This document shows positions 1,031-51,926 of a stretch of 64,000 nucleotides of DNA, one piece after another. The notes under the pieces were generated by a model. That model saw only the letters and a program-made list of their open reading frames with translations. It was not told the origin of the DNA and ran no database searches. Origin of the DNA: a virus (Duplodnaviria > Heunggongvirae > Uroviricota > Caudoviricetes). Position 1 is the first letter of the stretch. The number at the start of each line of letters is the position of its first letter. The position numbers and the translations under genes are program-made. The stretch lies in the IMG/VR virus record IMGVR_UViG_3300012933_000388, positions 1 to 64,000 of that record; one strand, given 5' to 3'.

Positions 1031-1058
1031 GCGCCCGCTTGTCGGGCGTTCTTTTTTT
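1031..1058 (+). terminator. rho-independent terminator
   Basis: GCCCG-cttgt-CGGGC hairpin followed by gttcttttttt. Confidence 0.6.
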
Positions 1059-1068
1059 GGTGTATAAT
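1039..1068 (+). promoter_or_regulatory. sigma70-type promoter, candidate leaderless (TATAAT-N6-ATG)
   Basis: TTGTCG-N18-TATAAT (1063-1068). The ATG of the Toprim gene starts 6 nt after the -10 and no SD is present. Confidence 0.45.
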
Positions 1069-1074
1069 ACTTGT

Positions 1075-1599
1075 ATGGAAACACTAGCACAACACATGAA
1101 GACACGTCACATGGACGTCAATCTCCACCACCCAGTATTGGATGAAGTGGAACGTGTTGCTACGTTCTATCTTTGGAACCTCAGTGGGCAGTTAGTTGGC
1201 TACCAACAATACAGGCCAGAAGGCGAGAAGAAGCCAAACAACAACCCACGAGAAGGTAAGTATTACACATACAGAAAGCAGCCTACGGTTGTTGTATGGG
1301 GTGTAGAATCGCTTCACCTTACACCGCATGTTGTATTCCTGACCGAGGGTGTGTTCGACGCTGCTAGGCTGACAGAACGTGGTGTTAGTGCACTTGCAAT
1401 CCTCAGTTGTAACACAGGCTGGGACTTACGCAACTGGTTAAGCATGCTCAATCGAAAGGTTGTTGCTGTTTGTGATGGCGATAAGGCAGGCGCGCAGCTT
1501 GCCAAGTTTGGTAATGTCAGTCTTTGTATGCTTGGGGGTAAAGACCTTGGAGATGCTGATGATGCGACTGTTGATATGCTAGTGAGGGAGTTTGTGTAA
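1075..1599 (+). CDS. Toprim domain protein (primase/topoisomerase-type fold)
   Basis: Conserved Glu in FLTEGVFDA and DxD in VCDGDKAG, then GGKDLGD. The longer ORF from 910 crosses the terminator, so ATG 1075 is preferred. Confidence 0.65.
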   Translation: METLAQHMKTRHMDVNLHHPVLDEVERVATFYLWNLSGQLVGYQQYRPEGEKKPNNNPREGKYYTYRKQPTVVVWGVESLHLTPHVVFLTEGVFDAARLTERGVSALAILSCNTGWDLRNWLSMLNRKVVAVCDGDKAGAQLAKFGNVSLCMLGGKDLGDADDATVDMLVREFV

Positions 1600-2210
1600 T
1601 GCCAGCCGTGCACCTATCAGGTCAACACAACGTAACATTCGTCCACATTCCTAAGTCTGCTGGTACTAGTGTAGGCAACTGGATAGTGGATCATGCTGAC
1701 GAGAGTGCTGTAATGTTGTGGTGGAATCATCCAACACTCGCTCAGATGAGACGTACTTGCAGTACCAACTTTTCAATTGCGGTGGTGAGGAATCCATGGG
1801 ACAGACTTGTTAGCATGTATCATTATGCTCAGTTTGGCACAAGTCCTCATCCAGCTATCGACTCTGATATGATTCACGAGATGTTTATCAGAGCAAACAA
1901 CTATAAGGTTTGGCCAACGTTCGATGAGTGGGTGTCCAACCTACCTTCATTCTACACTACACCAAACCAACAGGGCATGGATATGTCGCAGATGTATTGG
2001 ATTGGGGATGGAGTCGACTTGGTGATCAAGATGGAGACCATCGAACAGCAGTTTGAGGTGGTACAGGAAATGTTTAAGTGTGGTGATCCACTACCAAAGC
2101 AGAATACAACCAACCATGGTCATTATAGCAAATACTATGATGCTCGAACGAGAGATCTAGTTGCGAGATGGTTTAAGCGTGACATCGAAGCATGGCACTA
2201 TGAGTTTTAA
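1599..2210 (+). CDS. sulfotransferase family protein
   Basis: PAPS-binding 5'-PSB-like FVHIPKSAGTS and 3'-PB-like VRNPWDRLVSMY motifs. ATG overlaps the upstream stop. Confidence 0.65.
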   Translation: MPAVHLSGQHNVTFVHIPKSAGTSVGNWIVDHADESAVMLWWNHPTLAQMRRTCSTNFSIAVVRNPWDRLVSMYHYAQFGTSPHPAIDSDMIHEMFIRANNYKVWPTFDEWVSNLPSFYTTPNQQGMDMSQMYWIGDGVDLVIKMETIEQQFEVVQEMFKCGDPLPKQNTTNHGHYSKYYDARTRDLVARWFKRDIEAWHYEF

Positions 2211-2223
2211 TTAGGAGACAGAT

Positions 2224-2661
2224 ATGACAAGTATGATTTTAGTTCGTGGATTGCCAGGCTCTGGTAAGTCTACTGTTGCGAAGACTTTGATTGGTTTCTA
2301 CATGCACGTGGAAGCGGATATGTTCTGGATCAACGACTGTGGCGAATATGACTTCGATATCAAACGAATCGGAGAAGCACATTCGTGGTGTCAGAACCGA
2401 GTGTATGAGTTGATGGCTGCTGGGTTTAGTGTTGTTGTGTCTAATACATTCACAACATTGAAAGAGATGGCACCATACTTTGAAATGGCCCGCGACTTTG
2501 ATTGTGTTCCACAGATCATTGCCTGCCAAGGACAATATGGTAGCATCCATGGTGTGCCTGATGAGGCAATTACAAGAATGCGAGATCGATTTGTTTGGGA
2601 CGTGTCGCCATTGTATGATCTTGAATCAGCTTTTTGGCAAGATCGTACCTTGCAGCCTTAG
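2224..2661 (+). CDS. P-loop kinase (AAA_33 / polynucleotide-kinase-like)
   Basis: Walker A GLPGSGKST at the N-terminus, EAD Walker-B-like motif, size and layout of small nucleotide/polynucleotide kinases. RBS AGGAGA. Confidence 0.6.
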   Translation: MTSMILVRGLPGSGKSTVAKTLIGFYMHVEADMFWINDCGEYDFDIKRIGEAHSWCQNRVYELMAAGFSVVVSNTFTTLKEMAPYFEMARDFDCVPQIIACQGQYGSIHGVPDEAITRMRDRFVWDVSPLYDLESAFWQDRTLQP

Positions 2662-3277: not shown

Positions 3278-3392
3278 AATTAGTGCCCCGTTTATGTCCT
3301 CCCACCTGGCGTAGTGGGATGTAGTAGGACGGGGCCACTCCTTTGTACACCTATCGTAAGTTTAACGGTCCTAAGGTAGGTGTGTTCTTTAG

Positions 3393-3755: not shown

Positions 3756-3773
3756 CGATTATTCCTTTTTGAG

Positions 3774-3783
3774 TTTATTTATC
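3774..3783 (-). promoter_or_regulatory. T4-late-promoter-like motif GATAAATAAA
   Basis: Minus-strand GATAAATA lies 20 nt upstream of ATG 3755 with an intervening SD. Compare T4 late consensus TATAAATA. Confidence 0.3.
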
Positions 3784-3784
3784 G

Positions 3785-6700
3785 TCATGCGCCACGCAAC
3801 ATACAACCGTTGAACCAAGTAATAGCTGAGTTATTAACTGCCGTAACAGTTACGTTCCCGCCCGAACCTTGCTGAACGTATATTTCAAAGTAATCACCAG
3901 TGCCGTTTGCATACACCAATGAGCTTACTTGCATTGCCCAGAAGTTGGTAGCAATTTGCGCTCCTCTCTGGTTTATGCCACGCTTGTATTCTGTACCGTT
4001 TTTGTAAAGAATAATCATTATTTCGCCAGTGCCACTGGCACCATCTAGTCGAACTTCTGCATTCAATTGATAATAGCCTTCAACCGTAGGGGTGAATCTC
4101 GAGCTAGCGTAATTATTATTGGTGTCAAACTCTTCTACTTGAAATAGGACCTTGGTCTGAACATCAGTTGGAATTGTTTGGAGTGTGTTGTTTGCATATG
4201 CGGAGAATGCAGGACCATTGACTGCTTGCTTACCACCGACGGTGATCGGGCCTGGAACATTTAGCGCGCCCGTATCAGATAAAGAAAATATTGTTGCACT
4301 ATACGCACTGTTAATAATTTCTATTCCACCAACACTATTCAATCGGAACGATTTAGTGTTTGCGGTTGCACCAGCAGTTTTATTTGTGACCTTTAAGAAG
4401 TCAGCATACCCAGTACCGCCTTGCGTATTGGAAGCATTAACAATTAATGGATAACCGGTTGGAGTTGCACCAGCATATGTCAATGTTAAAGTATTGCTGT
4501 TGACGTTGACGGCAGAGATAGCACCGACGAAGCTAATGTTGTTTGAAGTGAGTGACGCAACACCATTAGCATATGCATACTGATTGGCAGCAATGCCGCT
4601 AAGGTATAGTGCGTTGTTAGCAGTGCCGGATATGTTGTCTGGTATCACGATCCCTGACACTTGCTCAACGTTAACAATAACTGCTGGTGTACCAGGTACT
4701 GTTGGTGTTGTACCGGCTGCATATGAAACCAATTTCACATGGCCGCCTTCGGATGAGTGCATCACCTGAACTCTATCACCAGCGTTGACAGTCACCATGA
4801 ACGGAGTAACAGCAATCAAGCTTCCAGGATCCTGACCAGTGTTCTTTCTATTGACTGAAAATCTACTATTAGTGTTTGTTTGATCGGTGCCGTTGATTCG
4901 AATCCACACATTGACGTCGTCGTCGGAATTACCATTATTTTCATACTGGTTGCTATATTCAATGTGGTATGTACCGCTATGTGCAAAGACTATATCGTTG
5001 TTGCTACCGACCGTTACGCCGTTTGTTCCATCATATGATGCAGTAATAGGAACGACGTATGCGTTGGTTGTATTAGATAACGCAACGTTAGCGCCGTTAT
5101 AGTAGAACGCCCCAAAGTATCCAGTAGTGAAGTTGTTAGATGTTCCGTTCTGGTTAATCCACTGGCTAAGCGCAGTGTTGTATGTCAACACTTGATTGTT
5201 CAACGGACCAGTAATAGTAACATCAGTCAGACTATCGATCGTAGTTGGAATCGTTGGCTTATTCTTAATGAAGTCAATCGCTAATGTATTCGATTGATTC
5301 CAATCAGTTTGAATCTGAGATGCAGTGGCATTAGTCCAATATACTCCTGTACCATTGGAGGCTAACACTTGGCCAGCAGATCCTTTAGCATTGTTTGCTG
5401 TAATCGATACAAGGGTTGCGTTGTTGGTATTAATGCCTGTTGAGTCGATAGTTGCTGTAGTGATTAGTGTATTGCTACCTACAGGCGTTGTTTGGAATGT
5501 TATCTTTGTGCCTGTATTGGCAGTATAGAAGTCTTCAGCAGCGTTCAAGTTGATACGAACAATACTACCTACGTACGTGTTGCTACCTGCCGCCCACCCT
5601 TGAGCTGTCAGACGCAACAAAGTATCGCCCGACAGCGTTGGTAGCGGTGAAGCTGCTGTTCCTCGAGCAGCCCTACCAGCAACAGATGCATATGCACCAG
5701 CACCATATGCATCAAAACCAATACGTGCTGGCTGCCCATCTTGCGCAACCGCTTGGATTAACGATCCAGAGAAGTTGCGAGGTTGAATGTCTCCTGTACT
5801 GGATCCGACTATTGTTAATGCCGCCTGTGATGTTAGTAGTGTTGCTGGAGTGTTGATAGTTACCAGACCCTCACGAGTTACACCGAATGTTTGGTTGCCA
5901 GTATCATAGCTGTTTACTACAATCGGGCGGTTGATGACAAGATTGCCAGTCCCTAATGTCGCTCCAATATAAAACGTTGCTTCTGTATTAGTTAACTGTA
6001 TGTAATTGTTTTGCAATAAAAAGTTACCAACACGAAGACCGCCATTAGATTGTTGTGTTGTATTTGCAATCGCAATATAGAATATACCATTAGCAAGTGT
6101 TAACTTTTGATCTGGAAACCCTGTCGTCTGATCTGCAAATGTAACAGAATTACCACCAACCCAAATGGACTCCCAGCGGTTGGTATTATTGCCGAGCGAG
6201 TATGTTAAGCTAGTATTCGGAATGATGGATGATGGAACGTGCAACCAGTCGACTGTTGTATTAGCGCTGATTACTTGATTACTAATTGTAATAGTTGTAC
6301 CGTCAATCTTTACACCACCCTTAGTGGTAGTAGAAGCAGTAGGGAGGACATAACCACCAGGGCCCCCGCCCGTTGGATCTTGTGCGGTCCACTTCTTGAT
6401 AGATTCATTATATGTAAGCACCTGGCCGTCTGTAGCACCAAGAACAGACGAACGAGCAACATCATCCAAGTCTCTTAACCATACTGCACCACCGCCTGGC
6501 CCGGTCATGGAAATCTTACCAACCCAACCTTCCAACAATTTCAACTTCTGTTGAATGTCCTTCAAGTCTCTACCAGTAACTTCTGGAGCAGGCTGGACGA
6601 ACATCGAAGGCGGTTGACCCTTCTTCTTAATTTTCTTAGCTGCCTCTTTGGCAAGTGATGGCTCTTCAATGGGCGCAAGGATCGCTTCCTCAATCACTTC

Positions 6701-7078
6701 TGGAATCTCAACAATACCTTCCAGGACATCCTCAACCTGTTGACCTTGGTCCGCATCCTCGGCGATAGTCACTTGTGGTTCGTCGGAAACTGCATTAGCC
6801 TTGATATCGTCAATCTTCGCGAGCACAGTCGCAAAACGATCTAACAGAGCCTGTTCTTCCGCGCTCTTTTGCTTTTCTTCAGCCATCAGCTTGCTAATCT
6901 GGCCAGAAAGGTCAGCGAACGTAGATTTGAAAACAGCCTTACGTTCTTCTTGTAAAGCAATCTGTTTCTTTTCTTTTTGTTCTTCAGCTATAATCTGGTC
7001 AAACACAGACTGTTCTGTCTCTACACCGAGACGTTCGTTCATTTTGACAATGAGGCGGAGTTCTTTTAGTTTATTCAT
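3785..7078 (-). CDS. long tail fibre protein
   Basis: 1097 aa. N-terminal coiled coil, Gly-rich hinge, STTTKGGVKIDG fibre repeat, long Asn/Thr/Gly-rich beta region, and two C1q/TNF-like jelly-roll-like segments at the C-terminus. Confidence 0.75.
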   Translation of the reverse strand: MNKLKELRLIVKMNERLGVETEQSVFDQIIAEEQKEKKQIALQEERKAVFKSTFADLSGQISKLMAEEKQKSAEEQALLDRFATVLAKIDDIKANAVSDEPQVTIAEDADQGQQVEDVLEGIVEIPEVIEEAILAPIEEPSLAKEAAKKIKKKGQPPSMFVQPAPEVTGRDLKDIQQKLKLLEGWVGKISMTGPGGGAVWLRDLDDVARSSVLGATDGQVLTYNESIKKWTAQDPTGGGPGGYVLPTASTTTKGGVKIDGTTITISNQVISANTTVDWLHVPSSIIPNTSLTYSLGNNTNRWESIWVGGNSVTFADQTTGFPDQKLTLANGIFYIAIANTTQQSNGGLRVGNFLLQNNYIQLTNTEATFYIGATLGTGNLVINRPIVVNSYDTGNQTFGVTREGLVTINTPATLLTSQAALTIVGSSTGDIQPRNFSGSLIQAVAQDGQPARIGFDAYGAGAYASVAGRAARGTAASPLPTLSGDTLLRLTAQGWAAGSNTYVGSIVRINLNAAEDFYTANTGTKITFQTTPVGSNTLITTATIDSTGINTNNATLVSITANNAKGSAGQVLASNGTGVYWTNATASQIQTDWNQSNTLAIDFIKNKPTIPTTIDSLTDVTITGPLNNQVLTYNTALSQWINQNGTSNNFTTGYFGAFYYNGANVALSNTTNAYVVPITASYDGTNGVTVGSNNDIVFAHSGTYHIEYSNQYENNGNSDDDVNVWIRINGTDQTNTNSRFSVNRKNTGQDPGSLIAVTPFMVTVNAGDRVQVMHSSEGGHVKLVSYAAGTTPTVPGTPAVIVNVEQVSGIVIPDNISGTANNALYLSGIAANQYAYANGVASLTSNNISFVGAISAVNVNSNTLTLTYAGATPTGYPLIVNASNTQGGTGYADFLKVTNKTAGATANTKSFRLNSVGGIEIINSAYSATIFSLSDTGALNVPGPITVGGKQAVNGPAFSAYANNTLQTIPTDVQTKVLFQVEEFDTNNNYASSRFTPTVEGYYQLNAEVRLDGASGTGEIMIILYKNGTEYKRGINQRGAQIATNFWAMQVSSLVYANGTGDYFEIYVQQGSGGNVTVTAVNNSAITWFNGCMLRGA

Positions 7079-7082: not shown

Positions 7083-7093
7083 AATATTTATCT
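7083..7093 (-). promoter_or_regulatory. late-promoter-like motif AGATAAATATT, N6 from ATG
   Basis: Minus-strand AGATAAATATT is identical to the motif at 51912-51922. GATAAATA ends 6 nt before the tail-fibre ATG and no SD is present. Confidence 0.35.
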
Positions 7094-7094: not shown

Positions 7095-7123
7095 TTGCCA
7101 ATTCCGATTGGTCACTATACAAT
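7095..7123 (+). promoter_or_regulatory. sigma70-type promoter
   Basis: TTGCCA-N17-TACAAT, 30 nt upstream of ATG 7154 with AGAGG SD. Confidence 0.5.
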
Positions 7124-7153
7124 AGACGCCAACACACTTTCAAGAGGTATACA

Positions 7154-9319: not shown

Positions 9320-10279
9320 ATGGAACAAAAAGTGAAACGCGGCTTCAAGCGTAAAACAATTGAGCAAACAATTCGCAACCACATCAAAGGCTGGTTGGCT
9401 TCAATCGATGACATCGAATTGCGTGATGAAGTTAAGAAGCACTATATTGTAACTGGTGGTGCTATCACTTCTATGTTGCTTGGCGACTTGCCGAACGATT
9501 ATGATGTATACTTGGATGATGTTGATGTCGCTGCTAAGCTGGCCAACTATTACATCAGCCGATTGTCTACACCTGACAATGAGAAGACTGCTGTTCCGAT
9601 CGTTGAAGTTCCACCAGAACGTAACCGTGTGACTATTAAAGTTAAGTCATCTGGTGTTGCTGGTGAAGATATCAATCAAGCAGACTACCAATACTTTGAA
9701 CAGTATGCTGATGGCGGTCAACGCTCTGCTTCATACTTGGATGCCATGGCATCGCGCGAGACAGGTGCATACAAAGCACTTGCTATTACTACTAATGCAA
9801 TCACGTTGTCTGATAAGACTCAGATCGTGTTGCGCTTTGTTGGCCCTGCCAACGTTATTCACAAGAACTATGACTTCGTCCACACAACCAACTACTTTAC
9901 AGAGTCAGAGGGTGCTGTATTTAACGAACCTGCTCTGGAATCCATCCTTGCCCGAGAACTCAAGTATGTCGGTAGTCTCTACCCGATTTGTTCGATCTTC
10001 CGGATCAAGAAATTCATCAAACGTGGGTGGACAATTACTGCAGGTGAAATGCTCAAGATTGCTTACGACATCAGCAAACTCGATCTCGACAATCCGCTAG
10101 TATTGCAAGAGCAATTGACTGGTGTTGATGCTGCATACTTTGCTCAGATCCTTCAGTTGATTCGACAAGAAGGTAAGCCAATCGATCGTACATATTTGTT
10201 CGAACTGGTTAACCGAATCTTCGATGAAGATTGGGAAGTTGAGCAAGCGATTAACGAATCTGGAATTAATTTAGCATGA
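9320..10279 (+). CDS. Pol-beta superfamily nucleotidyltransferase (CCA-adding/poly(A) polymerase head-like)
   Basis: VTGGAITSMLLGDLPNDYDVYLDD matches the GGxxRDxLLG-x4-DxD head-domain pattern. Confidence 0.5.
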   Translation: MEQKVKRGFKRKTIEQTIRNHIKGWLASIDDIELRDEVKKHYIVTGGAITSMLLGDLPNDYDVYLDDVDVAAKLANYYISRLSTPDNEKTAVPIVEVPPERNRVTIKVKSSGVAGEDINQADYQYFEQYADGGQRSASYLDAMASRETGAYKALAITTNAITLSDKTQIVLRFVGPANVIHKNYDFVHTTNYFTESEGAVFNEPALESILARELKYVGSLYPICSIFRIKKFIKRGWTITAGEMLKIAYDISKLDLDNPLVLQEQLTGVDAAYFAQILQLIRQEGKPIDRTYLFELVNRIFDEDWEVEQAINESGINLA

Positions 10280-10781: not shown

Positions 10782-10938
10782 AGAAGCTCGACTGGGTAAC
10801 GAGCGTTACGATGTCGTACAGCAAATTAAGCAGCTACGCGGCACTGAGCCACCTGTGTGTTGGGGTCAAGACGATTGCTCTACAATGATGTTGGTCCGCT
10901 GTCCGTGGCGCATCGATTGTGGTAGTCCTAAGGATTGA
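10741..10938 (+). CDS. hypothetical protein
   Basis: Overlaps the previous ORF by about 40 nt, so the start is uncertain (ATG 10741 or 10747). Confidence 0.4.
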   Translation: MHMKTDKIQKLLDKEARLGNERYDVVQQIKQLRGTEPPVCWGQDDCSTMMLVRCPWRIDCGSPKD

Positions 10939-10963
10939 CAAGTTTGCCTAGTGGCAGTATAAT
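10935..10963 (+). promoter_or_regulatory. perfect-consensus sigma70 promoter, candidate leaderless
   Basis: TTGACA-N17-TATAAT. ATG 10970 begins 6 nt after the -10 and no SD is present. Confidence 0.7.
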
Positions 10964-10969: not shown

Positions 10970-11251
10970 ATGAAATTTCTTAAAATCGAAACCATCGAAG
11001 AGGGCATGATCCCTCCACGCGCTCGCATTGCCCTTATTAAGGTAGTCGACACATTCATTAAAGATTGCCCAATTAGCTACGCAATCGTTTTGCGTCTTCC
11101 GTTCAAACGATGGAAGACCTTTTTCAGTATGCGCAACTTCGATAACGATCAAGGGTGGTGCGTGTATACTTGTTTCCTAACATACCACAAATGGCGTCGT
11201 GAATTCAAACGAGGCGGCATGTGGGTCCCAATTGAAACGGATGACCTATGA
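10970..11251 (+). CDS. hypothetical basic protein
   Basis: ORF starts at the predicted transcription start. Coding-like composition. Confidence 0.5.
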   Translation: MKFLKIETIEEGMIPPRARIALIKVVDTFIKDCPISYAIVLRLPFKRWKTFFSMRNFDNDQGWCVYTCFLTYHKWRREFKRGGMWVPIETDDL

Positions 11252-27803: not shown

Positions 27804-28022
27804 TCACTTTGTAGTACTATATGTGTATACGCCAGAAGGCTTACCAAAGATATTATTTCCATACACTTCCACTCTAACGGTCTTGCCATTTCCGAATGGA
27901 TTAATGCCATATTTGAATGCATTTCGGAATGTTTTATAGCCACTGATAATACAGCGGTTATTCATTCCTACCTCATCATAGCTACCATCTGCATTCTGCT
28001 TAGTCACCAAATAGCTAGTCAT
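27804..28022 (-). CDS. hypothetical protein (72 aa)
   Basis: AAGGAG SD 9 nt upstream of ATG 28022. The ORF-track N-terminal extension was rejected. Confidence 0.55.
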   Translation of the reverse strand: MTSYLVTKQNADGSYDEVGMNNRCIISGYKTFRNAFKYGINPFGNGKTVRVEVYGNNIFGKPSGVYTYSTTK

Positions 28023-28026
28023 TGAT

Positions 28027-28146
28027 TCATTCTCCTTCAAATGCATTGTCGCCATATGTGTCAAACTCAGTACCCTGGTTAGCCCAATAGTCGTACTCTT
28101 CACACAGTGCCACTAATTCTTCCAACTCTTGATCGATATTGCTCAT
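28027..28146 (-). CDS. small acidic protein (39 aa)
   Basis: Starts 1 nt after the stop of 28147-28317. MSNIDQELEELVALCEEYDYWANQGTEFDTYGDNAFEGE. Confidence 0.35.
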   Translation of the reverse strand: MSNIDQELEELVALCEEYDYWANQGTEFDTYGDNAFEGE

Positions 28147-28317
28147 TTACTTCCCCTGGTTATAAATGTCGTTTTCTAAATCACAAAACAGCGATTCAGT
28201 GCCATTGACTAGATCTAGTTCACTTTCATCGAAAATGCCTAATCTTTTGCCATGCCAAATCATTCCGAGAACTAACGAGACTTGCTGCTCGTTTAGTGTT
28301 ACTGTGATCTCTTTCAT
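28147..28317 (-). CDS. small hypothetical protein (56 aa)
   Basis: AGGAGA SD 5 nt upstream. First gene after minus-strand promoter 28340-28368. Confidence 0.45.
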   Translation of the reverse strand: MKEITVTLNEQQVSLVLGMIWHGKRLGIFDESELDLVNGTESLFCDLENDIYNQGK

Positions 28318-28339
28318 CGTTATCTCCTATTGAACCACG

Positions 28340-28368
28340 ATTATCTGACAAAAACGAAAGTTGGTCAA
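28340..28368 (-). promoter_or_regulatory. early promoter cassette, minus strand
   Basis: Minus strand reads TTGACC-N17-GATAAT (ttgaccaactttcgtttttgtcagataat), the same family as the plus-strand cassettes. Confidence 0.55.
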
Positions 28369-28528
28369 CATAGGCGATTAGTATCAGACTGAGCTGTACG
28401 CTTATTCTAAAAGTCATTTGTCCGCAGCCGCCGTCCACCCCAGTTGCTTTCGAATGACCCTATTATACATGGTTTTGGGAAGTCGGCAACTAGGCTGTAA
28501 GTATCAGACTAGAGTTGAAGGGTACTGG

Positions 28529-28557
28529 TTGTACAAATTCCAAAACTATTGTACAAT
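28529..28557 (+). promoter_or_regulatory. early promoter cassette (island variant)
   Basis: TTGTAC-N17-TACAAT, spacer aaattccaaaactattg. Confidence 0.5.
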
Positions 28558-28578
28558 AGTGTTTTAGGAGATAAAAAA

Positions 28579-28917
28579 ATGAATAAAGTTGTTTTTGGTT
28601 TTGGTGTGAGTGTTGATTTTATTAAAAAGAATGTTGATTTTGATTTTGAATTTGAGGGTAGTGGTGTATATGAGTTTGTTGGTGGTAGTGGTGAAATATA
28701 TGGTTATGAGAAGATTAGTAATAATAATGAAGTTGAATTGATGAATGTGGATGATATTCTAAATTCTATTGTTGATGAAGATTTTAGTGAAAAAGATATT
28801 AACAAATTGAAAGAGTTTGTTTTTAGTGATTTTGATGATGATTTGGGTTGTGAGAAAATGAGGTATGTTTGTTGTTATGGTGAGGATGATTTTAGAGAAT
28901 ATTATTATGTGAAATAA
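28579..28917 (+). CDS. acidic hypothetical protein encoded by a nearly C-free ORF
   Basis: TAGGAG SD then ATG 28579. Only 3 cytosines in the ORF, and the product lacks A, P, T, H and Q. N-terminal MNKVVFGFGV resembles 29337 and 30209 ORF products. Confidence 0.55.
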   Translation: MNKVVFGFGVSVDFIKKNVDFDFEFEGSGVYEFVGGSGEIYGYEKISNNNEVELMNVDDILNSIVDEDFSEKDINKLKEFVFSDFDDDLGCEKMRYVCCYGEDDFREYYYVK

Positions 28918-28923
28918 TAACAT

Positions 28924-28980
28924 ACTAAAATGTAAGCTTATTTTAAAAAAGTTGTACAAAATTGAAATTTGTATTATAAT
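28924..28980 (+). repeat. 57-nt direct repeat copy 1 containing promoter TTGTAC-N17-TATAAT (28952-28980)
   Basis: actaaaatgtaagcttattttaaaaaagttgtacaaaattgaaatttgtattataat is almost identical to 29246-29303. Confidence 0.8.
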
Positions 28981-29025
28981 ATATTTGTAATTTGATAAAA
29001 TGTAAACTTTTTAAAAGGGGATAGT

Positions 29026-29208
29026 ATGAAAGTAGCAAAAGTTGTGTTGAACATTGAAGTGTCAATTAATGAAAATGATTATAATGATTTGATGGCAAAT
29101 TTGAAAGATGTTTGTGGGTTGACTAATAAGTGTGACTTAGAAAATTATATTAGTGATGGTTTAGTGTATGATATTGAGAAAAATAATAGTAAGTTTTTGT
29201 TTGATTAA
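29026..29208 (+). CDS. acidic hypothetical protein (C-poor ORF)
   Basis: AAGGGGA SD. 6 cytosines in 183 nt. Confidence 0.5.
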   Translation: MKVAKVVLNIEVSINENDYNDLMANLKDVCGLTNKCDLENYISDGLVYDIEKNNSKFLFD

Positions 29209-29214
29209 AAGTGG

Positions 29215-29238
29215 GAGGGACACGAAAGTGTCCTTTCT
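29215..29238 (+). terminator. rho-independent terminator
   Basis: GGGACAC-gaaa-GTGTCC followed by tttct. Confidence 0.55.
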
Positions 29239-29245
29239 ATACTTT

Positions 29246-29303
29246 ACTAAAATGTAAGCTTATTTGAAAAAAAGTTGTACAAAATTGAAATTTGTATTAT
29301 AAT
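29246..29303 (+). repeat. 58-nt direct repeat copy 2 containing promoter TTGTAC-N17-TATAAT (29275-29303)
   Basis: Differs from copy 1 by one substitution and one extra A. Confidence 0.8.
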
Positions 29304-29336
29304 TGGTTTTCTGTTTAAATGAAAAAGGAATTTGAA

Positions 29337-29714
29337 ATGAATACAAAAGTGTTTAGTTTTGGTGTGGATGAAGATTCGTTAACTTTTGAAACAGAATTTG
29401 ATTCTTTAGAGTCTTATTTTAAAGTGGAAGGAATTCGCTATTGTGGCTATTTCTTAGACAAATATAATACTGAGGTAGTCAATAGTGTTACTGTTCAAGA
29501 TAAAGAGGAACTTTTTGATTATGATGAAGGTGAGTTAGAATTAGCTAAGTTTGATGAAATGGTAGCTAAGTATGATTCATTTTTGAAAAATAATAGTGAT
29601 TATGTGTTAGTCAATTATTGTATTGAATATGATATTTCTTGGATATTAATGAGTAAAGCTGATTATGCTAAGTTTTTAGAATTGTGTGAACTAGAAGTAG
29701 CAAACGAAGAATAA
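29337..29714 (+). CDS. acidic hypothetical protein, paralog of 28579-28917
   Basis: AAAAGGAA SD then ATG 29337. MNTKVFSFGVDEDS parallels MNKVVFGFGVSVDF. Confidence 0.55.
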   Translation: MNTKVFSFGVDEDSLTFETEFDSLESYFKVEGIRYCGYFLDKYNTEVVNSVTVQDKEELFDYDEGELELAKFDEMVAKYDSFLKNNSDYVLVNYCIEYDISWILMSKADYAKFLELCELEVANEE

Positions 29715-29718
29715 AATT

Positions 29719-29742
29719 GGGAACCGAAAGGTTCCCTTTTTT
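29719..29742 (+). terminator. rho-independent terminator
   Basis: GGGAACC-gaaa-GGTTCCC followed by tttttt. Confidence 0.75.
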
Positions 29743-29751
29743 ATCTCTATC

Positions 29752-29777
29752 GGAAACAAAAGTGCCAATCGCCCCCG
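29752..29777. repeat. GGAAACAAAA motif copy 3
   Basis: GGAAACAAAAGTGCCAATCGCCCCC, in the same orientation as copies at 27661 and 27695. Confidence 0.7.
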
Positions 29778-29810
29778 GCCGAGTAAGCTTACACTTTGAT
29801 TGGTTATTGG

Positions 29811-29839
29811 TTGACCAAATTCCAAAACTGTGTGATAAT
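29811..29839 (+). promoter_or_regulatory. early promoter cassette
   Basis: TTGACC-N17-GATAAT, preceded by ttggttattgg. Confidence 0.6.
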
Positions 29840-29868
29840 TCAGTCATCGATTAAATGAAAGGTCTGTT

Positions 29869-30132
29869 ATGACAAAGTTTTTGGTTGAGGTTGTTTCGAT
29901 TGAAGATGGTGAGTATTATTCTGATAACAATGTTTCTGGATCTACTGTGAATGTGACATTACAACGTGGTAGTGACTTTGCTAGTTGTGATCAGATTTTG
30001 TTTTGGGAAGCAACTGATCAAGAAGAGTTAAACGATCTGTTCGATGAGTGGGTCGATTTGGCTATCGGTGGTGAGGAAGGCTATAGTGCTATGATCACTG
30101 AAAATGGTGTTACAAAAATGTATTCTCAATAA
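29869..30132 (+). CDS. hypothetical acidic early protein
   Basis: Single ORF between two cassettes. SD AAAGG. Confidence 0.6.
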   Translation: MTKFLVEVVSIEDGEYYSDNNVSGSTVNVTLQRGSDFASCDQILFWEATDQEELNDLFDEWVDLAIGGEEGYSAMITENGVTKMYSQ

Positions 30133-30156: not shown

Positions 30157-30185
30157 TTGACCAAATCGAAATTTGGTCTTATAAT
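30157..30185 (+). promoter_or_regulatory. early promoter cassette
   Basis: TTGACC-N17-TATAAT-AGAGTCA. Spacer dyad GACCAAAT/ATTTGGTC. Confidence 0.7.
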
Positions 30186-38793: not shown

Positions 38794-39480
38794 TTATAAT
38801 TCTCCGAATAGTGCGGCCGCCATTTCGTGTGTCTCTATGATTTCTAGCGTTGGGTGATATTCATGGATCGCCATAATCGTGTCAGCATCCCACATATTCC
38901 TAACAGCAATATATGGAACATTCATGCATGCTGCTATATGAGTCCATCCACCCTCTATTCCCACAACATATCTGGATCTAGACATAATATCGACTGACTG
39001 TTGTACTGTTAGTGGTAGACCGAGGATTGGATATAGCTGTGGATTGGACTGTGCTATTTGGTTTATCCTCCTGAGGGCGTGAGAATTAAAAAACTTCCTT
39101 ATTGAATCTGACCCATGCCCCCTATACATCTTGTGTGTAAGGTATAATGCTATTGGCCCGTCTGTATTCGGAATCCATTGTGTCTTGAATGGGTGATATT
39201 TGTGCGGGAGTGTTAGTGATGTTTCCAGCCTGATCAGATCATCTGTATTTTCTCTAATATCAATTAGCTGCTGGCGGTCATGTAGCCTAACCTCATATGT
39301 GTATTGATACTGAGGTTGTTGGAATAGCGGGATCAGCTGATCTATCGTATGATCTATAGGCCTTGCTCGGCTATAGTGGAATATTAGATGCGTCGGTTCT
39401 GTTAATGTGGATAACGCATATGATATCGTTCTGACCAAATCACCAAATCCCGTCATTCCGGATATGTGTTGTATTTTCAT
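38794..39480 (-). CDS. glycosyltransferase family 9 (heptosyltransferase)-like protein
   Basis: C-terminal YVVGIEGGWTHIAACMNVPYIAV resembles the GT9 xGxDSGxxHLAAAxGxPxV motif. Isolated minus-strand gene. Confidence 0.4.
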   Translation of the reverse strand: MKIQHISGMTGFGDLVRTISYALSTLTEPTHLIFHYSRARPIDHTIDQLIPLFQQPQYQYTYEVRLHDRQQLIDIRENTDDLIRLETSLTLPHKYHPFKTQWIPNTDGPIALYLTHKMYRGHGSDSIRKFFNSHALRRINQIAQSNPQLYPILGLPLTVQQSVDIMSRSRYVVGIEGGWTHIAACMNVPYIAVRNMWDADTIMAIHEYHPTLEIIETHEMAAALFGEL

Positions 39481-39502
39481 TAGTTTATTTAGAGTAGGAG
39501 CG

Positions 39503-42882: not shown

Positions 42883-43025
42883 TGAAAAGCATGAAGCAAG
42901 CAGCTAATTTTAAGATGCGTGGTAGAATTACCATGCGTTGCCATTGCCGCTGCTGCGAGGTTTTTAATCCGAAGTGGGCATATCGTATGAAAATGGCTGC
43001 CAAGGATATAAAAGAATTGTTGTAA
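42882..43025 (+). CDS. small basic Cys-rich protein (47 aa)
   Basis: TAATG junction. CHCRCC motif. Ends immediately before the tmRNA acceptor piece. Confidence 0.35.
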   Translation: MKSMKQAANFKMRGRITMRCHCRCCEVFNPKWAYRMKMAAKDIKELL

Positions 43026-43080
43026 TCCCTTCAAAGAGAAGGACTTCTGGACGCGGGTTCGACTCCCGCCATCTCCACCA
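43026..43080 (+). ncRNA. ssrA: tmRNA acceptor piece (3' half of a permuted ssrA gene); 5' boundary uncertain
   Basis: GCGGG-TTCGACT-CCCGC T-arm, 3' acceptor strand CATCTCC and encoded ACCA (43077-43080). Complementary to GGGGATG at 43219. Confidence 0.8.
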
Positions 43081-43218
43081 AAAGTAATCACCGAAGTGAC
43101 TAGGAATAAAAGCGGTCATCGAGTTAGGGCATCAGGTCAAGACTGTGTTAGTAGTGTGGACAGCCTCCCTAACCGACCACTAAGGCGAGTGGTTGAGAAT
43201 GCAACGATTACTTTTGAT
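43081..43218 (+). other. structured intervening segment of the permuted tmRNA precursor
   Basis: AAAGTAATC (43081-89) pairs with GATTACTTT (43206-14). Internal helices GTTAGGG/CCCTAAC and ACCACT/AGTGGT. Confidence 0.6.
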
Positions 43219-43455
43219 GGGGATGCCATGGTTTCGACAGGGGTAGATATTAGAGACGGCAACACGGTAGGCGATGACCGCAAATCAAGCAAATAAAAGT
43301 AACTGCAAACGAAAGCTCTTACGCATTGGCAGCCTAAACGCTGACTAGGGTTTCGGATGGTTTCCTCGTAACAGAATAACCATCCACTAATATATCAGAC
43401 ACGTTGCCCATTAGAGGCCCTGTATGGTCTAGCAGTACCATCAAAGAAACTGCTA
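43219..43455 (+). ncRNA. ssrA: tmRNA coding piece (5' half of the permuted ssrA gene); 3' boundary uncertain
   Basis: GGGGATGCCATGGTTTCGACAGGGG 5' end. Tag ORF GCAAACGAAAGCTCTTACGCATTGGCAGCCTAA (43305-43337, ANESSYALAA*). Helix 43355-62/43378-85 and H-type pseudoknot 43424-43455. Confidence 0.8.
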
Positions 43456-44328: not shown

Positions 44329-44608
44329 GTTGGAATCTATTAAAGAGTATCTCCGTCATATCTCGACGGAGACTATCGGATGGCTAGCTGTGATTATGAT
44401 TCACTGTAGTACGATTCCTCCTATCCTCGCTCTTCTGCTCGGCGTATCAGACCACCTACCTTCTATTGATGTGGTAGCGTTTATGTGGTTCGGTTTAATC
44501 TTGCTTTTCATCAAAGCTCTGATTACCAAAGATATGTTGAATGTTATTACTATTGGCGTGGGGTTCATCATCCAAGCCATGTTACTCGGATTATTGGTAT
44601 TCAAATAA
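44321..44608 (+). CDS. holin candidate (3 TM membrane protein)
   Basis: Overlaps the endolysin stop. Three hydrophobic helices. Position is the main argument. Confidence 0.5.
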   Translation: MDKLESIKEYLRHISTETIGWLAVIMIHCSTIPPILALLLGVSDHLPSIDVVAFMWFGLILLFIKALITKDMLNVITIGVGFIIQAMLLGLLVFK

Positions 44609-44847
44609 TGGAAGAACAAATCAATCAACTCATTAACGTCCAGGACTTCTTATTAAAGATCGAATCGATCTCACGCGAGAAGCGTTTAGACGCTATGGAC
44701 GCAGTACTGTGGTATTGTGCCAACTCAGGCCTCGAAATTGAGACCGCTGCTGAGCTTATTCGTAAGAATGCAAAGATGAAAGCTCGCATCAAAAACGATG
44801 CAGAGAACAATGGATATTTTCCTAAGACCGCAAAGCTACCAATTTAA
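44608..44847 (+). CDS. gp33: late transcription coactivator (T4 gp33-like)
   Basis: TAATG junction. LDAMDAVLWYCANSGLEIETAAELIRKNAKMKARIKNDAE parallels the T4 gp33 core (MSYLEATTAFLEENSIPETQFAKFI...). Confidence 0.5.
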   Translation: MEEQINQLINVQDFLLKIESISREKRLDAMDAVLWYCANSGLEIETAAELIRKNAKMKARIKNDAENNGYFPKTAKLPI

Positions 44848-45476: not shown

Positions 45477-45559
45477 AGTAAGCTAAATAAACATGCAGGT
45501 TGCAAGACTTGCAATACAACGTTTATATTTTTAATACTCCGCATATATAAGGAAATACA

Positions 45560-49154: not shown

Positions 49155-49178
49155 TAAAAAGCAACTGGTAGTAGTTGC
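49155..49178 (-). terminator. rho-independent terminator (minus strand)
   Basis: Minus strand reads GCAACT-actacc-AGTTGC then ttttt. Confidence 0.45.
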
Positions 49179-49193
49179 TTATCGTGTTGTGGC

Positions 49194-49901: not shown

Positions 49902-49914
49902 GTTTTCACCTCAG

Positions 49915-50856
49915 TTAATAGTCAAGTCGGGTTGGTAATAATGTTTTCAGCAGTGTCGATCCGGTATTGACGACATTCAATACGTCGTTTACGTTGCGTG
50001 GGCTCTTCACCGCACTGATCGTTTGCAACACAGATGCACCACGCATAATATTGTCGAATAGCGACACATTCTGCGAAGCGAGTGTTTGTTGGTTTGGCTC
50101 ACGTAGTTGCATTTCGAGGCTACCATCGTATGCCCAGTGCGAGTATGTGAATGTAATAGGAATCCGTACAAGGTCGTTAATGTTAGACCAGTCGCGTTGT
50201 ATTTCGCCCAAAGATATTGGGTAGGCGTTGTATAGTTTAATGACGCCTATTTTCTTTTGTATCTCATCGTATGTTACGATGTCGATTGTTGTTTTGTATG
50301 AGTCGCGGTAGCTGAGTTCGAACGGCTTACCATAGAAGGAGTCAACGCCAGCGCCGGCATGTGGCATATTGCCGAACCCGATGATTGAATTCATCCACAC
50401 ATAGAAGAACTGATGGATTACTCCACGAGCATCGCCAATGAACGATATAGACACATCATTGAACCCTGCAGAGAAAGGCTTCTTTTCGAGAGGTCCCACA
50501 CCATGACGTCTAACACTAGAAGTCATTAGCTGCACACCTGGCTGGTTGACACGCTCGGCGCGCAAGGTTACGAGCTTATCTAATATTGCTCCAGCATCTG
50601 GTACGACGGCTTGTCTAGTGTTGATATTATCTGTGAAAATCTTAGGAGCGGAGATGCCGATATATGTCAATGACGGCTTTTCAATGCCCCACTTACGGAT
50701 ACCTGCCCGGACCCCCTCGGACGCTTTTGCAAACGGCTCGGCTTGTCTCTTTTCGCCAGTCGTTTGTCTAAACCCACCGAGTAGACGGTTGGCAGCGCCC
50801 CCTGCCAGGCTGATTGCGCCTAGTATTTGTTGGTTACGTTCGTTTAGGGATGCCAT
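49915..50856 (-). CDS. tail-tube-fold protein (gp3/gp54/gp48 class; exact orthology unresolved)
   Basis: VNQPGVQLMTSSVRRHGVGPLEKKPFSAGFNDVSISFIGD...FFYVWMNSI resembles the T4 gp19-fold pattern. Follows gp4 and the gp2-like gene. Confidence 0.45.
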   Translation of the reverse strand: MASLNERNQQILGAISLAGGAANRLLGGFRQTTGEKRQAEPFAKASEGVRAGIRKWGIEKPSLTYIGISAPKIFTDNINTRQAVVPDAGAILDKLVTLRAERVNQPGVQLMTSSVRRHGVGPLEKKPFSAGFNDVSISFIGDARGVIHQFFYVWMNSIIGFGNMPHAGAGVDSFYGKPFELSYRDSYKTTIDIVTYDEIQKKIGVIKLYNAYPISLGEIQRDWSNINDLVRIPITFTYSHWAYDGSLEMQLREPNQQTLASQNVSLFDNIMRGASVLQTISAVKSPRNVNDVLNVVNTGSTLLKTLLPTRLDY

Positions 50857-51464
50857 TATCTCTTTCTAGTTTTTCGTATGCTGTCTTCATATACTCGTGC
50901 TGAAGATGCCTTCTGGAATCTTTCGAGTGGTAAGAATAACGCTACACTCCACTCGGTTGCTGGAATAGTGACCAAGTTGGAGGCTAACCCCTTATTTAGG
51001 TAGTGCTTCACGCATGGCTCGAAATAACGATTCTTGGAAATGTTCTGAAGTACGCTATACGACAATTGGAGCTTGGTTCTGGCGTTTGTCAATTCGCCGG
51101 ATGCTGCAGTTAACAAAGCATCCATTAGAACGGCTCTCATTTGGTATGGCAAATAATGCATGTTGATTCCCCACATCCCTGTACTATCGGTGTGGAATGG
51201 GAATACTAAAGGAAATTTATCCCAATATGGTAGATCCTTTGCTGTAGTTGCCTCATATTGAAACAACACCATTTGACCTATGATTGAACTTACTGGCCCA
51301 CCTTTTTGTAAGGTGGATGGGGCAGACTTAATCACAGTCTTTGGATTCTTCATTGCATTAGTGGCTGCTTGTTGGACCCACGTTTGCGCTTCAGCTGTTC
51401 TGAGAGGGATAGATCTCGACTGCACGTTTTTCTGAAGAAGGTTTGCGAATATGCCAGTAGCCAT
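50856..51464 (-). CDS. DNA end protector-like protein (T4 gp2-like)
   Basis: GQMVLFQYEATTAKDLPYWDKFPLVFPF...GMWGINMHYLP pattern and position next to gp4. Confidence 0.4.
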   Translation of the reverse strand: MATGIFANLLQKNVQSRSIPLRTAEAQTWVQQAATNAMKNPKTVIKSAPSTLQKGGPVSSIIGQMVLFQYEATTAKDLPYWDKFPLVFPFHTDSTGMWGINMHYLPYQMRAVLMDALLTAASGELTNARTKLQLSYSVLQNISKNRYFEPCVKHYLNKGLASNLVTIPATEWSVALFLPLERFQKASSARVYEDSIRKTRKR

Positions 51465-51907
51465 TATTTAATTCCTAGGTGTTGCTCGGTCAGTATGCGA
51501 AATTGCCACGACTTCTTGTGACAAAACTCGGTAGCCGCCTGCCATTTAGCTGAGTTTACGCCCCATGTCATTACCTCGTTAATATACCTTTTCGTACGTC
51601 GTGTCTGTACAGGAGGAGGTTCTGTCTGCTTCTTTGGCTTGATCTCGACCACGATTATCTCTTCGACGCCGTGTACGTTGCGTTGTCTGATCCAGAAGTC
51701 TGGGAAATATCTATGCACGCGGCCATCGATCGGAGATCTATAAGGAATGCAGAATTCCTCACTCGACCATTCCAATACGTCTGGGTGCGCGTCTAAATAT
51801 GTCATAAACTTTAGTTCCCACGACGACCTGAAAACGATGCCAGACGGATCGCCTTTGTATTTTGTTGGATTTTTGGGACGGTAACTTCCCTTGTAACTTT
51901 TACTCAT
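51464..51907 (-). CDS. gp4: head completion nuclease (T4 gp4-like)
   Basis: YKGSYRPKNPTKYKGD...VFRSSWELKFMTYLD...WSSEEFCIPYRSPIDGRVHRYFPDF, a PD-(D/E)xK-type pattern of gp4 homologues. Confidence 0.6.
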   Translation of the reverse strand: MSKSYKGSYRPKNPTKYKGDPSGIVFRSSWELKFMTYLDAHPDVLEWSSEEFCIPYRSPIDGRVHRYFPDFWIRQRNVHGVEEIIVVEIKPKKQTEPPPVQTRRTKRYINEVMTWGVNSAKWQAATEFCHKKSWQFRILTEQHLGIK

Positions 51908-51911
51908 ATAG

Positions 51912-51922
51912 AATATTTATCT
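51912..51922 (-). promoter_or_regulatory. late-promoter-like motif AGATAAATATT, N6 from ATG
   Basis: Identical 11-mer to 7083-7093. GATAAATA ends 6 nt before the gp4 ATG and no SD is present. Confidence 0.35.
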
Positions 51923-51926
51923 AAGC

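Follow-up and report, generated by a model that had tools for sequence, protein, structure and literature searches.

Start codons abutting early and late promoters suggest leaderless mRNAs in an uncultured T4-like myophage

The stretch of DNA analysed here (the window, 64,000 nucleotides) comes from an uncultured, distant T4-like myophage and reads with an ATG abutting a promoter at five places. Four of these genes, two early and two late, lack a ribosome-binding site and have the start codon directly 3′ of the promoter (Table 1). Dozens of distant relatives repeat this layout, and on these comparative sequence grounds the four are very probably translated from leaderless mRNAs, a reading that all the indirect tests favour; we infer where transcription starts and how translation proceeds from the sequences, their geometry, the start codons and their conservation. 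An earlier note on this DNA had proposed a distinct class of four genes. The four are present, but membership is not confined to them, as a fifth candidate lies at 39480 on the minus strand; no informative homologues of this GT9-like ORF were found.

Table 1. Promoters, late motifs and associated genes in the window
Feature	Positions	Strand	Remarks
Intrinsic terminator	1031–1059	+	Stem-loop GCGCCCG-CTTGT-CGGGCGT plus T-run; −12.1 kcal/mol, z −2.5
σ70-type early promoter TTGTCG-N18-TATAAT	1039–1068	+	−10 hexamer 1063–1068; acttgt (6 nt), then ATG 1075
Stand-alone Toprim-domain gene, 174 aa, no SD	1075–1599	+	phrog_849, 2.9e-39; predicted leaderless early mRNA
Perfect-consensus σ70 promoter	10935–10963	+	TTGACA 10935–10940, N17, TATAAT 10958–10963; tgctat, then ATG 10970
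Conserved 93-aa gene, function unknown, no SD	10970–11251	+	Predicted leaderless early mRNA
GATAAATA, T4-type late-promoter motif, G at −13	7085–7092	−	6 nt 5′ of ATG 7078
Tail-fibre-like gene, 1097 aa, no SD	3785–7078	−	Predicted leaderless or 1-nt-leader late mRNA
σ70-like promoter TTGAAA-N18-TATAGT	7114–7143	−	10/12 matches; 35 nt 5′ of fibre ATG
GATAAATA late-promoter motif	51914–51921	−	6 nt 5′ of gp4 ATG 51907
gp4 head-completion gene, 147 aa, no SD	51464–51907	−	phrog_218, 2.1e-61; predicted leaderless or 1-nt-leader late mRNA
GATAAATA late motif, T4-like class	3776–3783	−	Conventional 20-nt spacer including AAGGA SD, then ATG 3755
GATAAATA, candidate internal late promoter	56326–56333	+	Within gp5-like gene; 142 nt 5′ of PAAR-like gene, ATG 56476
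GATAAATA, candidate late promoter	63715–63722	+	58 nt 5′ of ATG 63781
CTAAATA, Aeh1/cyanophage-type late motif	39486–39492	−	5 nt 5′ of ATG 39480
GT9-like ORF, 228 aa, no SD	38794–39480	−	Fifth leaderless candidate
gp33 homologue, late-transcription co-activator	44608–44847	+	PF16805, 40.1 bits versus cut-off 25; phrog_254

Early promoters at the Toprim and 93-aa genes

Both TATAAT-N6-ATG arrangements claimed for the early genes, with acttgt before ATG 1075 and with tgctat between the consensus TTGACA-N17-TATAAT and ATG 10970, are read where they had been placed. The search of the window for TATAAT-N6-ATG yields three further matches that look random. Those at 29080 and 30663 (plus strand) were read, lack a −35 element, lie inside ORFs and are apparently due to chance; the one at 62504 (minus strand) is likewise set aside, the sole basis being its absence from the promoter scan. 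In that scan the early promoters of the window form two groups, one of about 18 located 23–30 nt before an SD-led ATG and the other of exactly two located at 6 nt.

The Toprim gene, for which Pfam Toprim_2 and TIGR01391 matches are weak, was compared across 36 non-redundant related loci with 35–78% protein identity, a promoter-like match being one that scored at least 9/12. A strong promoter of the TTGACA-N17-TATAAT type has its −10 hexamer ending exactly 6 nt before the ATG at 21 of the 36 loci and 5 or 7 nt before it in four more, with only five promoter-like matches at all other sampled distances. Each of the 25 matches lying 5–7 nt from the ATG has a spacer of 17 nt and lacks a usable SD. 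At 19 of the 21 N6 sites a pyrimidine precedes the ATG, which fits the Y(−1)R(+1) preference of transcription start sites. At the 93-aa gene, four other distinct loci (L138, L139/L140, L141 and L145) keep TTGAyn-N17-TATAmT-N6-ATG behind two different upstream genes. The host σ70 holoenzyme would read TTGnCn-N17/18-TATAAT at the early genes; with the −10 hexamer at −12 to −7, N6 would set +1 on the A of ATG 1075 and of ATG 10970.

The annotated start codons are, as judged from sequence comparison, correct, because the N-termini are conserved in homologues. A rival account accepts the motifs as real promoters and has transcription start inside the ORFs or far from the ATG, with the true starts downstream and preceded by short leaders, for example at Met13 of the fibre or the 93-aa protein; we consider this very improbable. 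An in-frame ATG does lie 36 nt downstream in both genes, and GAGGG precedes ATG 11006, but it stands merely 1–2 nt from that codon. The ten homologues of the 93-aa protein, all 93 aa long and 65–88% identical, have residues 1–4 (MKFL) invariant in 10/10 and Gln at codon 13 in 7/10, so the downstream ATG is excluded as the start of this protein. In the fibre, conservation among homologues at the protein level covers residues 1–13, with the N-terminus MNKLKELRLIVKM, and gp4 has no alternative ATG near its start and aligns from residue 3 to position 2 of the phrog_218 profile.

Late motifs at the gp4 and tail-fibre genes

The identical minus-strand AGATAAATATT occurs at 7093–7083 before the fibre gene and at 51922–51912 before gp4, with 6 nt from GATAAATA to the ATG and no SD in either case, just as the earlier note had described; its further GATAAATA, before gene 3755, is likewise present at 3783–3776, with AAGGA in the 20-nt leader. 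The three GATAAATA sites it listed are in fact five, those at 56326 and 63715 having been missed, and all are co-oriented with late genes. T4 late promoters carry TATAAATA at −13 to −6 and depend on gp55, gp33 and gp45 (PMC2988020, PMC1524935), and this position of the motif means that N5, not N6, sets +1 on the A of ATG. The 8-bp motif of the window matches the T4 motif at 7/8 positions, a non-T at −13 being a known variant; as in T4, it precedes late structural genes on their coding strand and is depleted at other places. From the gp33 homologue it is clear that the window encodes late transcription machinery of the T4 type; gp55 had no match among the window proteins scanned, a minority of its ORFs.

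Conservation of the late layout was followed through 65 non-redundant related gp4 loci, in which NNTAAATA lies exactly 5 nt before the ATG in 35 and 6 nt before it in four more, with an SD in none of these 39. Numbered with the A of ATG as +1, the gp4 sites have the motif at −13 to −6, precisely the T4 position. T is found at −13 and A at −12 in 32/36 each, although these two bases played no part in selecting the sites; the flanking columns hold less than 1 bit of information, and 34 of the 36 N5 sites have a pyrimidine immediately before the ATG, again in keeping with Y(−1)R(+1). The fibre gene has GATAAATA or CTAAATA at N5–N6 in three of four homologous loci (GATAAATA-N6 in L146, GATAAATA-N5 in L147 and CTAAATA-N5 in L149). 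CTAAATA, with C at −12, serves in late promoters of Aeromonas phage Aeh1 and marine cyanophages (PMC1524935). It stands ahead of gp4 or of the fibre gene in some relatives (L002, L061 and L149), and the window has it at 39492 (minus strand), 45483, 50999 (minus strand), 51793 and 61890. Five of the six cultured cyanophages analysed (Syn9, S-T4, P-SSM7, P-SSM3 and ACG-2014f), however, have it 22–25 nt before gp4 and not at N5.

Across related loci, 468 distinct late-motif sites have a bimodal distribution of distances to the first ORF ATG, with a sharp peak at 4–6 nt that comprises 52 sites from several unrelated gene families, and a second, broad and T4-like mode at 19–33 nt. In 55 kb of T4 no ORF has a late motif 4–6 nt ahead of it, and T4 genes 4 and 53 have leaders of 26–28 nt with AAGGAG or AGGAGG (26 nt and AAGGAG for gene 4). 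The leaderless layout at gp4 differs from T4's expression of gene 4, the one matching T4 gene checked.

The possibility that A/T-rich hexamers lie next to ATGs by chance in this 64-kb genome of moderate A/T content is effectively refuted. The three random-looking TATAAT-N6-ATG matches would suit it, as would the count of GATAAATA, which is not enriched in the window (5 versus 2.7 expected, with 10/100 shuffles reaching 5). It is opposed by the bimodal distances and by the geometry, which relatives with as little as 35–55% protein identity keep at the same four genes, the promoter–ATG spacing persisting while flanks diverge. ATAAATA occurs 5 times against 12.7 ± 3.2 in shuffles, and all five are GATAAATA on the coding strand of late-gene blocks, while TAAATA occurs 19 times against 41 ± 6, so the motif is depleted overall.

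Leaderless mRNAs or longer transcripts

The four genes might instead be carried on longer read-through or operon transcripts and be initiated independently of an SD through an A/U-rich S1-binding enhancer or translational coupling, in which case the ATG-adjacent motifs would be A/U-rich translation elements or minor promoters and not a source of leaderless mRNA. We regard this as unlikely, though it is the rival with most to recommend it. The layout is not obligatory, since some homologues of three of the genes lack the adjacent promoter and have an upstream ORF that abuts or overlaps the gene instead: an inserted ORF overlaps the ATG in L001, the closest gp4 relative (82% identity), and an upstream ORF abuts or overlaps the 93-aa gene in L142–L144 and the Toprim gene in L102 and L115. 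These genes can therefore be translated without an SD or a promoter of their own. The late genes at 51927 and 62009 also have neither SD nor adjacent promoter, and the σ70-like promoter upstream of the fibre gene might yield a second transcript, one that has a leader but lacks an SD. An A/U-rich enhancer, however, needs neither a co-conserved −35 element at exactly 17 bp and a fixed 6 nt, nor a full late-promoter octamer at exactly −13 to −6 amid drifting flanks. Moreover, the terminator that closes the upstream RNA-ligase operon stops 5 nt short of the Toprim −10 hexamer, and the late motif at gp4 lies within the only 19 nt between the start codons of gp4 and a divergent gp48-like gene. Hairpins comparable to this terminator overlap the −35 element in relatives L085 and L131, and the ORF 5′ of the Toprim gene is not kept beside it in relatives.

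SDs are otherwise common in the window, although the assertion that nearly all other genes have strong AGGAG-type SDs was overstated: among 125 crudely called genes the SD core is at least 5 nt in 56, 4 nt in 30, 3 nt in 30 and absent in nine, about 70% thus having a core of at least 4 nt.

For the late genes, we propose that a gp55/gp33/clamp-dependent RNA polymerase would read GATAAATA or CTAAATA, with +1 falling exactly on the A at the 39480 ORF and, at the fibre gene and gp4, on the pyrimidine preceding the ATG, unless a slip of one base moves the start to the A. The earlier suggestion that the A of ATG is +1 fits the early N6 sites; the late N6 sites would give a 0–1-nt leader, N5 being needed to reach the A. 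A counterpoint is that the two late sites first reported in the window are N6, against the N5 dominant in relatives, and would have C or U as +1 under the T4 rule; in E. coli, extra 5′ nucleotides weaken leaderless initiation. The mRNAs would have a 5′-terminal AUG or a 1-nt leader and no SD, and a 70S ribosome, or a 30S subunit with IF2 and fMet-tRNA, would bind the 5′ AUG directly.

Relation to known leaderless systems

Actinobacteria, Deinococcus and their phages have leaderless genes genome-wide, with TANNNT about 6–7 nt before the start codon. The promoter-to-start-codon geometry and the lack of an SD are the same here; leaderless genes are the host-wide norm in those organisms, whereas here they would be a small gene-specific subset involving a proposed phage-specific late σ factor. 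The λ cI mRNA from PRM is leaderless, as are other genes with σ70 promoters such as Tn1721 tetR, the −10 hexamer lying about 6–7 nt before an ATG whose A is +1, so that the AUG is 5′-terminal and without an SD. The early genes of the window have the same layout as cI, although the Toprim promoter overlaps an upstream terminator and the genes concerned (Toprim and 93-aa) are lytic early genes of a T4-like phage, not a lysogeny repressor, with the layout conserved across a whole environmental lineage.

Genome context, promoter motifs and start codons

Judged from its predicted proteins, the window derives from a distant T4-like myophage. The best-matching cultured phages are cyanophages and Sinorhizobium T4-like phages, at 40–58% protein identity, and megablast searches of 50,697 phage records with two 12-kb pieces of the window found no match, so that this set holds no close relative that is annotated. 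A gp33 homologue (PF16805) is encoded at 44608–44847; among the subset of window proteins scanned, none matched gp55 or the gp45 clamp, whose genes may sit beyond the window. A permuted (two-piece) tmRNA gene was identified by ARAGORN at 42974–43428 (+), with the tag peptide VTANESSYALAA and Rfam scores of 147 bits (tmRNA_permuted) and 140 bits (beta_tmRNA); its acceptor/T-arm 32-mer matches genomes of many phyla and was uninformative as a clue to the host. Positions 28000–30000 form a low-GC island (32% versus ~44% GC elsewhere) with a duplicated promoter-like unit, aaaatgtaagcttattt..gttgtacaaaattgaaatttgtattataat (repeats at 28925–28980 and 29247–29303), unlike the TTGACC-type early promoters found elsewhere in the window, which suggests a foreign cassette. 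Syntenic genes of 318–321 aa in three related loci (L138, 1070–2026; L142, 1–545; L146, 1–91) carry a precomputed Pfam annotation as anti-Gabija Gad2; for the window counterpart (319 aa, 9320–10279) our own Pfam scan gave no match, and only phrog_4400 was assigned.

Coordinates of promoter elements and genes in the window
Feature	Position	Strand	Gene or remark
TATAAT-acttgt-ATG	hexamer 1063–1068; ATG 1075	+	Toprim gene
TTGACA-N17-TATAAT-tgctat-ATG	10935; 10958–10963; ATG 10970	+	93-aa gene
AGATAAATATT then ATG	ATG 7078	−	tail fibre gene; 6 nt from GATAAATA to ATG
AGATAAATATT then ATG	ATG 51907	−	gp4 gene; 6 nt from GATAAATA to ATG
GATAAATA	3783	−	
GATAAATA	7092	−	
GATAAATA	51921	−	
GATAAATA	56326	+	
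GATAAATA	63715	+	
gp4, head completion	51464–51907	−	with gp2 and gp3 in the 49.9–51.9 kb block
Baseplate genes like gp48, gp53, gp5, gp25, gp6, gp7 and gp8	from 51927	+	
gp33, gp59, gp32	44.6–46.5 kb		
Small early genes	11–46 kb	+	long block

The four promoter–ATG arrangements lie exactly where an earlier note had located them, and a reading of the sequence bore out its claim that all four lack a Shine–Dalgarno (SD) sequence. Neither at the window sites nor in relatives does the stretch from promoter to start codon hold an SD or have space for one. The third GATAAATA (3783) has the conventional 20-nt spacer containing an SD that the note had described. Its statement on strong SDs at nearly all other genes was too broad: an SD core of at least 4 nt is present in 86 of 125 genes, a count based on crude gene calls, and other late genes, such as those at 51927 and 62009, likewise have no SD. 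Leaderless initiation strongly requires an AUG start. The start codon is ATG at all five window sites, including a further one at 39480; in relatives, ATG starts alone were scored as candidates, and the sole locus with a GTG start (L127) has no adjoining promoter.

The late motif of the window, GATAAATA, belongs to the known variants of the T4 late promoter TATAAATA, for which a non-T at −13 and a CTAAATA form are documented (PMC1524935). A promoter of this type should lie on the coding strand upstream of late genes, as the window sites do. ATAAATA occurs five times in the window (12.7 ± 3.2 in shuffles) and TAAATA 19 times (41 ± 6), both rarer than in shuffles; such general avoidance is as expected of a functional promoter signal. 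Each of the five ATAAATA is a GATAAATA, placed on the coding strand of a late-gene block. By number alone, GATAAATA does not exceed the shuffles; what carries the signal is its strand, its location and its invariant G.

The start codons are, by comparison with homologues, correct as annotated. Close-relative scans of IMG/VR returned nothing for the 93-aa protein, the fibre N-terminus or the GT9-like ORF that starts at 39480, and homologues of these were sought instead in a large protein database. Ten homologues of the 93-aa protein were found there, each of 93 aa, with MKFL invariant. At codon 13, seven of the ten have Gln where the window has Met, which rules out ATG 11006, behind GAGGG, as the real start. 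The fibre N-terminus MNKLKELRLIVKM is kept as protein across ~25 homologues, residue 3 of gp4 aligns to position 2 of the family profile with no alternative ATG nearby, and tBLASTn alignments of the Toprim protein in relatives start at residues 1–4.

Early promoters: the Toprim and 93-aa genes

Sigma70-type promoters were defined by a TTGACA-like −35 and a TATAAT-like −10 element spaced by 17 ± 1 bp. The promoter at 10935–10963 matches at 12/12 positions with a 17-bp spacer and that at 1039–1068 at 10/12 with an 18-bp spacer. About 18 TTGACC-N17-TATAAT promoters lie 23–30 nt ahead of an ATG with an AAGGAG-type SD, and many of their leaders are near-identical; exactly two early promoters of the window place the −10 hexamer 6 nt before ATG. 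The search for TATAAT-N6-ATG that the earlier note had proposed recovered these two and also three strings that are apparently due to chance: those at 29080 and 30663 (+) are internal to ORFs and lack a −35 element, and that at 62504 (−) is missing from the scan for promoters matching at 10/12 or more positions. Between 30157 and 37215 (+), near-identical promoter-plus-leader cassettes (TTGACC-N17-TATAAT-agagtcat..AAGGAG..ATG; for example at 30157, 32562, 33578, 36049 and 36744) precede many small early genes.

For the Toprim gene, 55 related IMG/VR loci were fetched (35–78% protein identity; 36 non-redundant). A promoter-like match (at least 9/12) precedes the ATG by 6 nt in 21 of the 36 and by 5 or 7 nt in four more, and only five matches stand at other distances. 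The 25 matches at 5–7 nt all have 17-bp spacers and scores of 10–12/12, and a pyrimidine precedes the ATG in 19 of the 21 N6 loci. The upstream gene varies from locus to locus; the Toprim gene therefore travels together with its promoter as one unit. A split primase, or gene-60-like translational bypass, across 1013–1075 is thereby rejected as well: the upstream ORF (624–1013) has no match to a primase or Zn ribbon, and no homologue of it stands beside the Toprim gene in the 55 loci. An intrinsic terminator (−12.1 kcal/mol; 1031–1049 plus T-run) finishes 5 nt upstream of the −10 hexamer, so that upstream transcription would be largely stopped and no space is left for a leader; comparable hairpins overlap the −35 element in relatives. 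A PDB sequence search with the Toprim protein gave no match. Neighbouring genes (23–622, 2224–2661 and 1599–2210) encode an RNA ligase (PF09414), a polynucleotide-kinase-like P-loop kinase and a sulfotransferase-like protein. This context looks more like RNA repair than replication, and the 174-aa Toprim protein may therefore not be a primase.

The arrangement TTGAyn-N17-TATA(A/C)T-N6-ATG is kept at four other distinct 93-aa loci, behind two different upstream genes. At two further loci the promoter is missing, and the stop codon of the ORF upstream shares bases with the ATG. A terminator-like hairpin within the 93-aa ORF (11094–11118, +; −12.9 kcal/mol, then CTTTTTC) is not kept in six homologous loci and is therefore probably incidental. 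That the promoter at 10935 instead drives a small RNA ending at this hairpin was ruled out, the protein being conserved (ten homologues) and the hairpin not.

Late promoters: gp4, the tail fibre gene and other sites

Eighty IMG/VR loci with gp4 at 55–82% identity yielded 65 non-redundant upstream regions. In 35 of these, NNTAAATA lies exactly 5 nt before the gp4 ATG (30 being TATAAATA), and in four more it lies 6 nt before; all 39 lack an SD. About a dozen have a T4-like layout with the motif 25–40 nt upstream, and the closest gp4 relative (L001) has an inserted ORF in place of the fused promoter. With the A of the ATG as +1, the motif of the N5 class occupies −13 to −6, exactly where the late promoter of T4 has been placed in published work (PMC1524935, PMC2988020). 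The N5 sites have T at −13 and A at −12 in 32/36 each, neither of which played a part in their selection, and a pyrimidine at −1 in 34/36; the remaining flanking columns carry little information. T4 gene 4 differs from gp4 of the window in being SD-led, with TATAAATA followed by a 26-nt leader containing AAGGAG, and a scan of 55 kb of T4 found zero late motifs 4–6 nt ahead of an ORF. The cultured cyanophages Syn9, S-T4, P-SSM7, P-SSM3 and ACG-2014f are likewise unlike the window, with CTAAATA 22–25 nt before gp4.

At the related fibre loci, the arrangement is GATAAATA-N6 (L146), GATAAATA-N5 (L147), CTAAATA-N5 (L149) or leadered (L148), so that the spacing is 5–6 nt in three of four. Across all related loci, 468 distinct late-motif sites show a sharp peak at 4–6 nt from the first ORF ATG (52 sites) and a second, broad mode at 19–33 nt; the 4–6-nt class includes several unrelated gene families beyond gp4 and fibre. 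In the window, CTAAATA-aacta-ATG (39478–39492, −) has the exact N5 spacing and no SD ahead of a 228-aa ORF (38794–39480, −), which makes ATG 39480 a fifth leaderless candidate. This ORF is weakly GT9-heptosyltransferase-like and antisense to the early genes around it; a 105-kb JGI contig encodes an identical protein, and homologues were uninformative on the upstream region.

In every gene family, some members lack the fused promoter and have the gene coupled to the ORF ahead of it; longer RNAs may therefore serve for translation from these starts independently of an SD. We also count against a leaderless reading the N6 spacing of the window's own late sites and a second, sigma70-like promoter 35 nt upstream of the fibre gene. 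On the other side stands the promoter-to-ATG spacing, which homologues conserve, as a requirement for +1 to remain on the AUG would predict.

Several further features were observed. The gp48-like baseplate gene (ATG 51927; region 51908–51927), divergent from gp4, has neither an SD nor an adjoining promoter; its nearest same-strand late-type motif is CTAAATA at 51793–51799 (+), 127 nt upstream within the gp4 coding region, and the gene has an AGGAAA-type SD in relatives. Another CTAAATA (45483–45489, +), between gp59 and gp32 and 70 nt ahead of the gp32 ATG (45560), could serve this ssDNA-binding protein gene as a late promoter with a long leader. A conserved, structured intergenic element of ~115 nt (3278–3392, −; MFE −37.5 kcal/mol, z −2.8) separates a 120-aa gene from a secreted Peptidase_S11 (D-Ala-D-Ala carboxypeptidase-like) gene. 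It has a near-identical copy in L146 (6073–6188) and no match in Rfam, even at E ≤ 1. In L147, CATAAATA-N5-ATG of a different gene comes after its 3′ end; it could thus be a 3′ element or a small RNA and not a 5′ UTR.

Proposed leaderless expression and its significance

The best explanation of the arrangements would be promoter–start codon fusions that yield leaderless mRNAs, a reading with strong comparative support that falls short of proof. In our judgement the mRNAs of the four genes are probably leaderless or have a 1-nt leader. Early in infection, host sigma70 RNA polymerase would start on the A of ATG 1075 and of ATG 10970, the −10 hexamer being followed by N6. The fibre and gp4 genes would be transcribed late by a gp55-type polymerase, which is expected because gp33 is encoded in the window. 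The earlier note had set the start ~7 nt after both kinds of element; with the late motif at −13 to −6, +1 is instead the sixth base past it. By this T4 rule, +1 would be the A at N5 sites, including 39480, and the C or T just ahead of the A at the N6 sites of fibre and gp4. Given the Y(−1)R(+1) preference of RNA polymerase, the start at N6 sites could still be the A, and the leader would be 0 or 1 nt. Translation would proceed by direct ribosome binding to the 5′ AUG, as leaderless mRNAs are known to behave.

The proposed mechanism is that of classical leaderless mRNAs, such as lambda cI from PRM and the actinobacterial leaderless genes. SD-driven gene expression is generally taken as the rule in T4. 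We found no description in the open-access literature searched of T4-type late or early promoters fused to start codons in T4-like phages, and a review of T4 post-transcriptional control does not mention leaderless mRNAs. The point of interest, on the comparative evidence, is a conserved, gene-specific fusion across a large uncultured T4-like branch. More tentatively, the fusion may be a conserved design of this large, mostly uncultured branch, kept since leaderless mRNAs are handled differently in infection, which we regard as possible rather than probable. Host sigma70 early and gp55-type late promoters would then both be fused, and the fusion kept at particular genes (gp4, tail fibre, the stand-alone Toprim protein and others), for example as an escape from RegB-like SD-targeting nucleases and RegA-like translational repressors, or through use of 70S-type initiation late in infection. 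If true, it would represent the first leaderless class to be linked with T4-type late transcription, and start-codon and promoter annotation would be systematically incomplete in environmental T4-like genomes.

The arrangements predict transcription starts to the nucleotide for two promoter classes and offer annotation rules for metagenomic T4-like contigs, in which late-motif-N5-ATG and −10-N6-ATG would mark start codons and promoters. They bear on start-site choice by the gp55 holoenzyme and on the partitioning of translation during infection. Confirmation of leaderless expression would mean that particular early and late genes have leaderless mRNAs in many environmental relatives, a departure from T4 at gene 4.
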